A DNA stretch of 64,000 nt, taken from the NCBI RefSeq assembly GCF_055900595.2, contig NZ_CM148325.1; one strand, 5' to 3'. The position numbers and the translations under genes were made by a program. Positions within the stretch are counted from its first letter, which is position 1. Every line of letters begins with the position of its first letter. Below are positions 3,947 to 17,892 of the stretch, piece after piece. The notes beneath the pieces were generated by a model. That model did not search any database and was not told the origin of the DNA. It worked only from the letters and a program-made list of their open reading frames with translations.

Positions 3947-4708
3947 ATGATTTTAAGTGCATTTTCTCTCGAAGGTAAAGTTGCGGTCGTCACTGGTTGT
4001 GATACTGGACTGGGTCAGGGGATGGCGTTGGGGCTGGCGCAAGCGGGCTGTGACATTGTTGGCATTAACATCGTTGAACCGACTGAAACCGTCAAGCAGG
4101 TCACGGCGCTGGGGCGTCGTTTTTTAAGCCTGACCGCCGATCTGCGAAAGATTGATGGTATTCCTGGACTGCTGGATCGCGCGGTAGCTGAGTTTGGTCA
4201 TATTGATATCCTGGTGAATAACGCCGGATTGATTCGGCGCGAAGATGCTCTCGAGTTCAGCGAAAAAGACTGGGACGATGTCATGAACCTGAATATCAAG
4301 AGCGTATTCTTCATGTCTCAGGCAGCGGCGAAACACTTTATCGCACAAGGCAATGGCGGCAAGATTATCAATATCGCGTCAATGCTCTCCTTCCAGGGCG
4401 GGATCCGTGTGCCTTCTTATACCGCATCAAAAAGCGGCGTGATGGGCGTGACGCGATTGATGGCGAATGAATGGGCTAAACACAACATTAATGTTAATGC
4501 GATAGCTCCGGGTTACATGGCGACCAACAATACTCAACAACTACGGGCAGATGAACAACGTAGCGCGGAAATTCTCGACCGCATTCCAGCTGGCCGTTGG
4601 GGACTGCCGAGTGACCTGATGGGGCCGGTAGTGTTTCTTGCCTCCAGTGCTTCAGATTATGTGAATGGTTATACCATTGCCGTGGATGGCGGTTGGCTGG
4701 CTCGTTAA
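3947..4708 (+). CDS. kduD: 2-dehydro-3-deoxy-D-gluconate 5-dehydrogenase (SDR family)
   Basis: 253 aa; short-chain dehydrogenase with N-terminal TGCDTGLG Rossmann motif and YTASK catalytic motif; adjacent to kduI. Confidence 0.93.
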   Translation: MILSAFSLEGKVAVVTGCDTGLGQGMALGLAQAGCDIVGINIVEPTETVKQVTALGRRFLSLTADLRKIDGIPGLLDRAVAEFGHIDILVNNAGLIRREDALEFSEKDWDDVMNLNIKSVFFMSQAAAKHFIAQGNGGKIINIASMLSFQGGIRVPSYTASKSGVMGVTRLMANEWAKHNINVNAIAPGYMATNNTQQLRADEQRSAEILDRIPAGRWGLPSDLMGPVVFLASSASDYVNGYTIAVDGGWLAR

Positions 4709-11170: not shown

Positions 11171-14537
<3,367 letters not shown>

Positions 14538-14542
14538 GCTTT

Positions 14543-14571
14543 CACCAGATGGCATATTCAGCCATCTGGTG
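14543..14571. terminator. Perfect 11-bp palindrome between convergent lplT and the DUF4139-like gene
   Basis: caccagatggc-atattca-gccatctggtg, 5 nt after the lplT stop and 5 nt before the opposite-strand stop; no clear U-tract on either side. Confidence 0.4.
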
Positions 14572-14575
14572 AAGA

Positions 14576-16231
14576 TCACATTCCCGAAGGGTGCATACCT
14601 TTCGGATACTTCACGCTGTATGAGAATGGCAGACTCACGTTCTCTTTGCCTGACAGTTTCAGCGTCCAGGACAGTTCACCCGTTTTCGCATCAAACTGTG
14701 CCTGGCCATATTGCATTTTTTCCACCGTAATATCACTGTTAGCACTGACTGGGATCTGGTCGAGTAGAGTGATATCCACCGCTTCGCCGTAGCTGTTCTT
14801 TACATTGAGGGTGTAACTGAAGTTGCGTACCGCGCTGTCGTTAAAGATAGATAACGCATTCTCTTTTTTGAGTACGGCTTTACGCTGAATAATCAGCTTA
14901 GGATCGCGGTTAAGCTGAATATCCAGCGACTTACCATCTTCTGGCGGCTGCAAATAGCCCACGCCGGTACGGTTGTTACCAAAGAAGATCTGACTTTCGC
15001 CGGGGATTAAATTTAACTGTTCCCACTCTTTAATTTGCACCTGGAGATACGCGTCATTACTGATCTTCGGAATAGCAAAGAAGCGATATTTACCGCTGAC
15101 CGACTCTTCCTTAATGACCACCGTGCGCGCGGTATTATCGCTGTCGATTTGCCACGGCAGCGAAAGCGCATAGCGGACATTTTGCGCAGTGAAACTTTCT
15201 GGTCGAGCCGAAGCTGGCACTGCCTGTTCGGCATACTTGCGCCCGGCTTGTCGCTCCCTTGTTTTTTGCATCTCTGCCTTCAGGGTTTTCTGCAATTCTG
15301 AGGCATCCTGGTTAGACGAATATTCCGAACGCTGTTCCATCACGGGTGATGCTGAAAGCGAGCCGCTTACACCACCATACTCCGGAACATCCACATACAG
15401 GGTTTCCAGGTGTGGCAACGTAAGATGAGTATCAGGTTCACTGGTCGAGAGCACGAGATTAACGCCTTTCCAGGGCAACCCCGTATACTGGCGAATATTA
15501 GCCTTGTAAACCAGACGCAGCGGCTGGTTTATGGCAGTGGCGTGAATATCATAGATCGGCGTCCAGGTAGCATCAGGGGTCATATAACGTACCACCGCTT
15601 TCGCTGTGACGGCTTTTGGGGCATAGACCTTAGCGATAATAACCTGCGGATCATTGGCTGCCACCGAATCGCCGTTACTCATGCTCTCGCGTTGCTCCAG
15701 CTTTTCAATTTCAAGCTGCTTATCAGCAAGTTTCTGCGTCAACTCATTGTCGACTTGTAATAACTCACCATTTTTCTCTTTCACCATTTGCAGATACTTG
15801 CCAACTTCGGCGGCACTTTTATTGGTTAATGTGCTATTTGCCTCTAATACCTTAATTTGAGCCGCGATATTGTTTTTCTCGGCGGTCAGTTTTGCCTGTT
15901 CCACCTTTGCTGCTTTTAACTGTTGCTGAATATCTGACGGCAGCGCATTCGGCTGTGTTTCCATTAGCGCGATACGTGAGGAAAGCACCGTCACTCCGTT
16001 ATCGATAGAAATGGCGATGCTGTCGTCGGTTACTGAATTGGCGATATTAGTAAAGATAATTTCGCTTTCACCTGCCGGTAAGTGGAGTATCTCTTCACCT
16101 TGCAGGCTGGCACCATGCAGATAAACAGTGACGTCTTTAAGTGTTAGCGGTTGGGTTACCTGCGCCCCCCAAGCGGAGGACAGGCACCCGGTAAGCAACA
16201 TGGCGAGGGGAATAGGTTTGAAAATCAACAT
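14576..16231 (-). CDS. DUF4139/DUF4140-like (MuiA-like) lipoprotein with central coiled coil
   Basis: 551 aa from ATG at 16231 (MLIFKPIPLAMLLTGC..., aagga RBS 5 nt upstream; the track ORF starts 5 codons earlier at TTG). Lipobox LLTGC; central K/E/Q-rich heptad-like region; Y/T/N-rich C-terminal part. I do not recall a gene at this position in K-12. Confidence 0.75.
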   Translation of the reverse strand: MLIFKPIPLAMLLTGCLSSAWGAQVTQPLTLKDVTVYLHGASLQGEEILHLPAGESEIIFTNIANSVTDDSIAISIDNGVTVLSSRIALMETQPNALPSDIQQQLKAAKVEQAKLTAEKNNIAAQIKVLEANSTLTNKSAAEVGKYLQMVKEKNGELLQVDNELTQKLADKQLEIEKLEQRESMSNGDSVAANDPQVIIAKVYAPKAVTAKAVVRYMTPDATWTPIYDIHATAINQPLRLVYKANIRQYTGLPWKGVNLVLSTSEPDTHLTLPHLETLYVDVPEYGGVSGSLSASPVMEQRSEYSSNQDASELQKTLKAEMQKTRERQAGRKYAEQAVPASARPESFTAQNVRYALSLPWQIDSDNTARTVVIKEESVSGKYRFFAIPKISNDAYLQVQIKEWEQLNLIPGESQIFFGNNRTGVGYLQPPEDGKSLDIQLNRDPKLIIQRKAVLKKENALSIFNDSAVRNFSYTLNVKNSYGEAVDITLLDQIPVSANSDITVEKMQYGQAQFDAKTGELSWTLKLSGKENVSLPFSYSVKYPKGMHPSGM

Positions 16232-16339
16232 GGTTATCCTTAACAATGGGCACAGACATTGAAACGCGCGCTGGCGTTGACCAAAAGAGTCTATTGCGCT
16301 TTGTCAGGAAAGATGCGGAGAAAAGTAGTGAATATATTC

Positions 16340-16382
16340 TGAAAAGTGGAGAAAAGAGACGCCTGGTGCAAAACACCAGGCG
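16340..16382 (-). terminator. Rho-independent terminator after tas
   Basis: Stem cgcctggtg/caccaggcg with caaaa loop, 6 nt downstream of the tas stop, followed on the minus strand by a T-rich tract. Confidence 0.6.
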
Positions 16383-16388
16383 AAAGGA

Positions 16389-17429
16389 TCACGGTGCCGG
16401 ATAAGTATAAACCTGATGTACCGCTTCAATTTCAGCTAATACGTCTTCGCTTAACTCCAGATGCAAACTTTCGACGTTAGTTTTCAGCTGCTCCATCGTG
16501 GTTGCGCCCAGCAGAGTGCTGGCAACAAACGGTTGACGGCGTACAAAAGCGAGCGCCATCTGAGCAGGATCCAGGCCATGACGTCTGGCGATATCGACAT
16601 ACGCCGCGACGGCTTTTTGCGTTTGCTCACCGCTATAGCGAGTGAAGCGGCTAAAGAGCGTATTACGTGCGCCAGCAGGTTTTGCACCGTTGAGGTATTT
16701 CCCGGTCAGCGTGCCGAAACCCAGACACGAATAGGCCAGCAGCTCGACCCCTTCATACTGGCTGACTTCTGCCAGACCCACTTCAAAACTGCGGTTTAAC
16801 AGACTGTAGGGGTTCTGAATGGTGACAATACGCGGCAGATCGTGTTTGTCCGCCAGATGCAGGTAGCGCATTACGCCAAATGCAGTTTCGTTCGACACGC
16901 CGATATAACGAATTTTTCCCGCGCGTTGGTACTCTGCCAGTGCGTCCAGCGTATCCAGCAGCGAAACCGCAGGGGCAGAATCTGTCCAGCTATAACCGAG
17001 TTTGCCGAAGCAGTTGGTTGGGCGCTGCGGCCAGTGCACCTGATAAAGATCGAGGTAATCAGTCTGCAGGCGCTTGAGGCTGTCATGCAGAGCTTCGCGG
17101 ATATTCTTCCGATCCAGCGCCTGATCCGGGCGGATGCCCTTGTCATTATTGCGCGACGGTCCGCTCACTTTGGAAGCGATAATTAACTTTTCGCGGCTGC
17201 CATGTTTTGCCAGCCAGTTACCGACGTAGGTTTCGGTTAACCCTTGCGTTTCGGGGCGCGGCGGCACTGGGTACATTTCGGCAACGTCGATAAGGTTAAT
17301 GCCCTGAGCGACGGCATAGTCGAGTTGTGCGTGGGCGTCGGCTTCGCTGTTCTGTTCACCAAACGTCATCGTGCCAAGCCCCAGCGTGCTGACTTCCAGC
17401 GAACTGTGGGGTATACGGTGATATTGCAT
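16389..17429 (-). CDS. tas: NADP(H)-dependent aldo-keto reductase Tas
   Basis: 346 aa; aldo-keto reductase family sequence (MQYHRIPHSSLEVSTLGLGTMTFG...). Confidence 0.92.
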   Translation of the reverse strand: MQYHRIPHSSLEVSTLGLGTMTFGEQNSEADAHAQLDYAVAQGINLIDVAEMYPVPPRPETQGLTETYVGNWLAKHGSREKLIIASKVSGPSRNNDKGIRPDQALDRKNIREALHDSLKRLQTDYLDLYQVHWPQRPTNCFGKLGYSWTDSAPAVSLLDTLDALAEYQRAGKIRYIGVSNETAFGVMRYLHLADKHDLPRIVTIQNPYSLLNRSFEVGLAEVSQYEGVELLAYSCLGFGTLTGKYLNGAKPAGARNTLFSRFTRYSGEQTQKAVAAYVDIARRHGLDPAQMALAFVRRQPFVASTLLGATTMEQLKTNVESLHLELSEDVLAEIEAVHQVYTYPAP

Positions 17430-17536
17430 AGCCGTTTCCTTTTTATAATCACGACATAAGGAATATAAAAATGGCAGAGGGAAGGGAAAAGGGAAAGCGA
17501 AAAATCTTAAGGCCAGCCGGATGCTGACCTTATTTT

Positions 17537-17755: not shown

Positions 17756-17892
17756 CCGGTTATCCTCATTTGGCCCACCTATGATAATAGTCTTTTTATA
17801 AACCGACGTTATATATCTTGAAAGCAGGAAAATCTTAAACTGTGAGGGTAACAGGAGTGAGTACGCTCTCCTGCAGGAGAGCGTACGGAGTA

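Follow-up and report, generated by a model that had tools for sequence, protein, structure and literature searches.

The window analysed here is a 64,000-nt stretch of contig NZ_CM148325.1 (RefSeq assembly GCF_055900595.2). It carries aas (11192-13351, plus strand) and lplT (13344-14537, plus strand; TAA stop codon at 14535-14537), a lysophospholipid transporter gene that is the last of the aas-lplT pair and was assigned from its open reading frame and the RefSeq annotation of the near-identical strain 2013C-4282. Convergent with lplT lies a minus-strand gene for a 551-aa protein (14576-16231; TGA stop codon at 14576-14578). Pfam searches matched this protein to PF13598 (DUF4139, 1.7e-42) and PF13600 (DUF4140, 5.8e-12), and RefSeq names it a DUF4139 or "MuiA family" protein; the literature on DUF4139 yielded nothing informative about function. 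Its N-terminus (MLIFKPIPLAMLLTGC) is lipobox-like and resembles a lipoprotein signal. Upstream of the DUF4139 gene and co-oriented with it is tas (16389-17429, minus strand; ORF and RefSeq), encoding an NADP(H)-dependent aldo-keto reductase, which is followed by a canonical intrinsic terminator (16360-16382, minus strand) with a 10-bp stem, whose arms CGCCTGGTG and CACCAGGCG lead into TCTCTTTTCT. In the interval from the tas terminator to the start of the DUF4139 gene, positions 16328-16343 hold the motif TTCAGAAT(A/T)(T/C)ATTCAC, with the palindrome GAATATATTC. Conserved in Escherichia and as far as Pseudocitrobacter, this motif is a candidate operator or promoter element of the DUF4139 gene.

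The spacer between the stop codons of lplT and the DUF4139/DUF4140 gene measures 38 bp and is filled almost entirely by a hairpin. The perfect 11-bp palindrome described in the initial annotation was confirmed (CACCAGATGGC, 14543-14553; loop ATATTCA, 14554-14560; GCCATCTGGTG, 14561-14571). Two flanking T-A pairs lengthen it to 13 perfect pairs (14541-14553/14561-14573), seven of them G-C, around the 7-nt loop, and the structure forms on both RNA strands. The palindrome had been placed 5 nt from each stop codon, which is correct on the lplT side, but the distance to the minus-strand ORF is 4 nt; measured from the 13-bp arms, the distances are 3 nt and 2 nt, respectively. The 38-nt spacer folded alone has a predicted free energy of −24.0 kcal/mol on each sense, so that the window's own allele is predicted to be equally stable on both strands, and the whole region in a 76-nt context gave predicted minimum free energies (MFE) of −30.3 (plus) and −28.9 kcal/mol (minus). 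The z-scores predicted for RNA folding at the hairpin were −4.8 (plus) and −3.8 (minus). We found five distinct perfect hairpins with arms of at least 11 bp and loops of 3-10 nt in the window, against 0.17 per dinucleotide shuffle, and two with arms of at least 13 bp in the 64 kb, against none in 30 dinucleotide shuffles. These shuffles rule out a chance origin of the junction hairpin. No Rfam covariance model matched at E ≤ 1 within 13300-17500 on either strand.

Like an intrinsic terminator, the junction hairpin is a stable GC-rich stem-loop directly downstream of a gene. The U-tract is missing on both strands, as the initial annotation had noted: the tails beside the stem read GATCACATTCCC (plus) and AGCTTAATGACG (minus), and those quoted in the U-tract test (GAUCACAUUCCC, plus; AGCUUAAUGACG, minus) likewise showed none. 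The flanks have the arrangement TTT-stem-AAG, with a T-run upstream, where an A-tract is absent, and an A-run downstream, the opposite of an intrinsic terminator. The missing U-tract can be attributed to the compact spacer, in which the tail of each transcript is antisense to the last codons of the other gene. Could the hairpin nevertheless be a weak, non-canonical intrinsic terminator that releases RNA polymerase alone on one or both strands? Its GC-rich stem, 11-13 bp long, its 7-nt loop and its position directly after both stop codons would suit such a role, as would the possible transition states between termination modes discussed by Dar and Sorek. Against it, the flanks are reversed, the U-tract is lacking in all 12 taxa compared below, on either strand, and a consensus terminator scan did not call the hairpin although the same scan called the tas terminator 1.8 kb away. 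The tas terminator resembles the junction hairpin in its GC-rich stem of ~10-13 bp, short loop, position after a stop codon and covariation, and differs in having the 7-8 nt U-tract and upstream A-tract that the junction hairpin lacks on both strands. It is conserved and covaries across taxa with its canonical U-tract retained, indicating that these genomes retain U-tracts where intrinsic termination is used. We therefore consider autonomous intrinsic release at the junction quite improbable.

To follow the hairpin through evolution, stop-to-stop spacers from 12 taxa, ranging from E. coli to Pseudocitrobacter, were brought into a nearly gapless alignment. The hairpin stayed in register across all 12 despite turnover at five or more stem positions. 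The 5' and 3' arms are CACCAGATGGC and GCCATCTGGTG in the window's E. coli allele, CACCGGGCAGC and GCCGCCCGGTA in E. fergusonii, GCCGGGCGGC and GCCGCCCGGC in a metagenomic relative (L013), and CAGCGGGTGGCG and CGCCACCCGCTG in Pseudocitrobacter. Double compensatory changes were found at 8 of the 13 pairs when read in the DUF4139 sense and at 7 of 13 in the lplT sense, and 87.8% and 93.6% of the cells, respectively, were paired. None of 500 shuffles reached the observed pairing, covariation and compensatory counts, and with the 3' partners shifted by 1-3 columns, only 31-50% of the cells were paired. Among E. coli alleles, the differences are confined to the loop, the closing pair and the 3' flank. 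One lineage has lost the structure: in a 3.5-kb metagenomic contig (L018), whose DUF4139 protein is 80% identical, a 17-nt deletion took away the 3' arm and left a 21-nt spacer (2277-2297), which implies that the hairpin is dispensable there.

The substitutions also distinguish the two RNA senses. In nine cells of the alignment, a C·A mismatch on the DUF4139 sense corresponds to a G·U pair on the lplT sense, and the reverse was never observed. At least five independent changes underlie these cells (one-sided p ~0.03), and the asymmetry is absent in Pseudocitrobacter. Across Escherichia, the predicted MFE of the spacer stays between −22.5 and −24.8 kcal/mol on the lplT sense, versus −15.4 to −24.4 kcal/mol on the other sense. 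This pattern argues for selection acting mainly on the lplT-sense (aas-lplT) RNA, and the wobble asymmetry together with the constancy of the MFE points to RNA as the selected molecule, rather than a DNA palindrome or protein site.

The same data bear on a DNA-level role, in which the palindrome would be a protein-binding site or a cruciform, for example a hotspot for recombination or deletion. A perfect 13-bp palindrome in DNA could be read this way, and the left edge of the deletion in K-12 (see below) is the lplT stop, only 3 nt from it. However, sequence turnover that preserves complementarity is ill suited to a recognition site, and a cruciform would make no distinction between the strands, yet all wobble-type changes are tolerated on a single RNA sense. 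We regard a DNA-level role as very improbable.

The minus-strand gene had been taken as an insertion beside lplT. The 1855-bp segment 14538-16392 is present in 51 of 5426 complete E. coli genomes, always at the lplT-tas locus, and its alleles fall into three groups that are ~99, 97 and 95% identical to the window. The DUF4139 gene is disrupted in three of the 51 carriers, by IS3-family elements (PT62 and LP5-1) or ISApl1 (VE-T9). A species-level scan recovered the order tas > DUF4139 > < lplT < aas in E. whittamii, Escherichia sp. MOD1-EC7003, a divergent "E. coli" genome and Pseudocitrobacter vendiensis, and the DUF4139 gene occupies the same position in E. fergusonii, the cryptic Escherichia clades and more distant relatives. 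Homologues cluster in Escherichia (E. fergusonii, 76% identity), Shigella, Pseudocitrobacter (67-72%) and further relatives (47-83%); beyond these, identity falls to 32% in other phyla. The synteny is shared by 11 of the 12 further DUF4139 contexts fetched, the exception being a 47% homologue (L015, 932-2527) that adjoins an alpha-amylase gene instead of lplT. In the most distant syntenic relative (L014, ~50% identical), the gene follows tas and the contig ends before lplT; a REP-like sequence (4112-4190) lies between the DUF4139 gene and the contig end.

Divergence of the DUF4139 gene tracks that of its neighbours. Identities to the window for DUF4139/Tas/LplT are 92/99/97% in the cryptic clades, 77/98/96% in E. 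fergusonii and 73/93/85% in Pseudocitrobacter, and within E. coli the segment 14538-16392 diverges about as much as its flanks. This co-divergence implies that K-12-type genomes lost the gene. The evidence from these comparisons points to the DUF4139 gene being an old, fast-evolving resident of the lplT-tas interval, lost by ~99% of E. coli including K-12. The evolutionary polarity at lplT-tas is thereby corrected: a lipoprotein-like gene was lost, not gained, and the description as an inserted gene does not hold, as it sits at the same position across genera and diverges along with the flanking genes.

The suggestion that the palindrome is a footprint of the event that brought in the gene (a mobile-element end, an att site or a target duplication) fails with it. 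The one observation in its favour is that homology between the window and K-12-type genomes breaks exactly at the lplT stop, beside the palindrome. Gene and hairpin, however, are co-located in E. fergusonii, E. whittamii, the cryptic clades, Pseudocitrobacter and relatives with 64-83% DUF4139 identity, and protein divergence follows the flanks. The RefSeq annotation shows no mobility gene (integrase or transposase) at the locus, and the other end of the segment, which is the tas terminator, carries no partner repeat. The palindrome is also single-copy: a 45-nt query hit one place in each of the 51 carrier genomes and nowhere else in the 5426 genomes. An insertion footprint is thus extremely unlikely, and we reject a mobile-element end or insertion scar, given the absence of a partner repeat and mobility genes and the fixed location across genera. 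The single-copy, locus-specific occurrence likewise excludes a repeat element such as a REP, MITE or IS end. REP/BIME elements are also extragenic palindromes in intergenic regions, for which a dual role as terminators and mRNA stabilisers has been proposed (bioRxiv 10.64898/2026.03.23.713779), but the junction hairpin occurs once per genome, at this locus only, and does not resemble the REP consensus.

We compared the junction with genomes that lack the gene. In 5372 of the 5423 matching complete E. coli genomes, homology with the window extends through the lplT stop codon and no further. In MG1655 and a K-12-like genome, the gap between lplT and tas is 31 bp and contains a different hairpin, AACGCCGGTT-tta-AACCGGCGTT. 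The palindrome is therefore not the ordinary lplT terminator of K-12, the alternative that the initial annotation had set against its own reading. The K-12 hairpin lies in the same place, 5 nt after the lplT TAA, and its role for lplT is presumably the same, but its sequence is unrelated and its tails are T-richer on both strands. The K-12 hairpin (L002, 3144-3166) aligns with the window's tas terminator at 16360-16382; the two begin equally far from the tas stop and have a common CGCC..GGCG core. On this alignment, the tas terminator and the one hairpin of the K-12 lplT-tas spacer are probably homologous. The sequences suggest that the DUF4139 gene and the junction hairpin disappeared in the same loss, after which the tas terminator, in remodelled form, served both genes; a neighbouring intrinsic terminator thus appears to have taken over after the deletion. 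A simple deletion between the short repeats common to both hairpins (CACCAG/CTGGTG) was rejected, because the product it predicts differs from the K-12 spacer.

A second hairpin lies within the last 37 nt of lplT (14501-14535), forming 13-14 bp with G·U pairs on the minus-strand RNA. In Escherichia, its predicted stability is −17.7 to −21.5 kcal/mol on the sense opposite to lplT, versus −12.6 to −19.3 kcal/mol on the lplT sense. The Pseudocitrobacter counterpart is out of register and favours the other sense, and covariation of this hairpin is accordingly not claimed beyond Escherichia. Term-seq data from MG1655 (Adams et al. 2021, PMC7815308, supplementary file 1) include a curated 3' end at 2972707(+), classified as "antisense lplT". 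This end falls 2 nt past the in-lplT stem (corresponding MG1655 interval, 2972669-2972707) and is equivalent to position 14499 of the window. A region of Rho termination, likewise on the lplT antisense, is given at 2973171(+) in supplementary file 2 of the same study (Rho score 7.6, p = 1e-17), ~460 nt further into that antisense than the 3' end. The two entries indicate that tas-side transcripts in K-12 pass the intergenic hairpin and end after the in-lplT hairpin, and that further read-through into the lplT antisense is halted by Rho. The in-lplT hairpin therefore probably marks the 3' end of transcripts arriving from the tas/DUF4139 side. For the lplT strand, no 3' end is curated in the K-12 Term-seq list (Adams et al., PMC7815308).

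On balance, the sequence evidence inclines us to read the palindrome as an exonuclease-blocking stem-loop that defines the 3' end chiefly of the aas-lplT mRNA, with RNA polymerase being released downstream by Rho or by collision. The palindrome would act as an RNA stem-loop, a 3'-terminal structure common to two convergent messages, rather than as an intrinsic terminator of the canonical type. After lplT, RNA polymerase would continue through the hairpin into the antisense of the DUF4139 gene, which is untranslated, and would there be freed by Rho or by collision with converging polymerases. The RNA would be trimmed by 3'-to-5' exonucleases back to the blunt hairpin of about −24 kcal/mol, which, located 3-5 nt past the lplT stop, would keep the stop codon and the coding region intact. 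Transcripts from the DUF4139 side would pass the hairpin and probably end at the second hairpin, 5 nt further on inside the 3' end of lplT, so that the two mRNAs would overlap at their 3' ends. Two observations from K-12 were counted in favour of this explanation: the loss of the DUF4139 gene still left lplT with a hairpin, and Rho-sensitive lplT-antisense transcription has a 3' end after the in-lplT hairpin.

The 3'-end protective stem-loops of Rho-dependent transcripts are the closest parallel. They are stable GC-rich stem-loops directly after the coding region, with neither a U-rich tail nor an upstream A-tract and with a C>G stretch downstream, and are proposed to block PNPase and RNase II after diffuse downstream termination. 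The junction hairpin is likewise a stable stem-loop without U-tract or upstream A-tract at the end of a transcription unit. Downstream of it, the C/G ratio on the plus strand is 1.4-1.9 at 60-160 nt, reaching 1.8-1.9 (90th percentile, 1.46); on the minus strand it is 2.0-2.2 at 140-200 nt, likewise above the window's 90th percentile, and both regions are antisense to coding sequence. This enrichment of C over G is modest, and the antisense of a coding region would be expected to give it anyway. What sets the junction apart is that a perfect palindrome is common to two convergent genes in a 38-bp spacer.

A collision-type bidirectional terminator was considered as well. In such a mechanism, the hairpin on each nascent RNA would pause the converging polymerases at the gene boundary, and head-on (plus trailing) collisions would free them, with Rho and exonuclease trimming being secondary. 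The setting is suitable: the genes are convergent, the spacer is 38 bp, and a stable hairpin is encoded on both transcripts, the location expected of a bidirectional terminator. According to Wang et al. 2022 (bioRxiv 10.1101/2022.10.23.513370), bidirectional terminators at convergent E. coli gene pairs are unlike intrinsic terminators and Rho-independent, with the hairpin positioning the collisions, and the junction hairpin is likewise unlike an intrinsic terminator. The bidirectional terminators of Ju et al. 2019, as Wang et al. 2022 present them, share with it the convergent pair, the hairpin on both transcripts, the lack of an intrinsic-terminator look and probably the overlapping 3' ends. 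The junction hairpin differs in that its conservation favours the lplT sense and the opposite transcript seems to use the in-lplT hairpin. Selection is asymmetric, as the DUF4139-sense stem decays to 9-10 bp in several Escherichia lineages, and in K-12 the opposite-strand transcript continues beyond the intergenic hairpin and has its 3' end within lplT. Both genes are probably weakly expressed, and collisions would then be infrequent. These points make a collision mechanism unlikely, and the protective 3'-end stem-loop is preferred here.

A more elaborate arrangement, which we put forward tentatively and consider rather less than probable, is a set of interlocked, strand-specific 3'-end hairpins: the palindrome would serve the lplT sense, the in-lplT hairpin the tas/DUF4139 sense, and the tas terminator would have been co-opted and remodelled as the bidirectional hairpin of K-12 upon loss of the DUF4139 gene in most E. 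coli. Under this arrangement, the palindrome may be maintained only as lplT-sense RNA, shielding the stop codon from exonucleolytic loss. If true, it would show, in a natural setting, terminators changing both type and owner as a gene is lost.

The junction hairpin is a conserved RNA stem-loop of an already known kind at a convergent gene boundary. The options of a bidirectional terminator or an RNA stability element in the initial annotation thus named the right kind of object, a conserved, covarying stem-loop at a convergent junction, while its third option, a footprint of insertion, is set aside. Taken alone, one more conserved stem-loop at such a boundary matters little. It is a clean natural example of a covarying 3' hairpin without a U-tract, in which the asymmetry of G·U versus C·A shows which of the convergent transcripts is selected, and the junction might help to test models of termination by Rho or by collision where convergent genes are tightly packed.

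Other perfect palindromes occur in the window. One at 84-118 has 16-bp arms and a 3-nt loop. Another, at 17861-17886, has 13-bp arms without a loop and lies just downstream of ygdQ, where it matches the region of the K-12 Term-seq 3' end classified as "primary ygdQ" (2971170).
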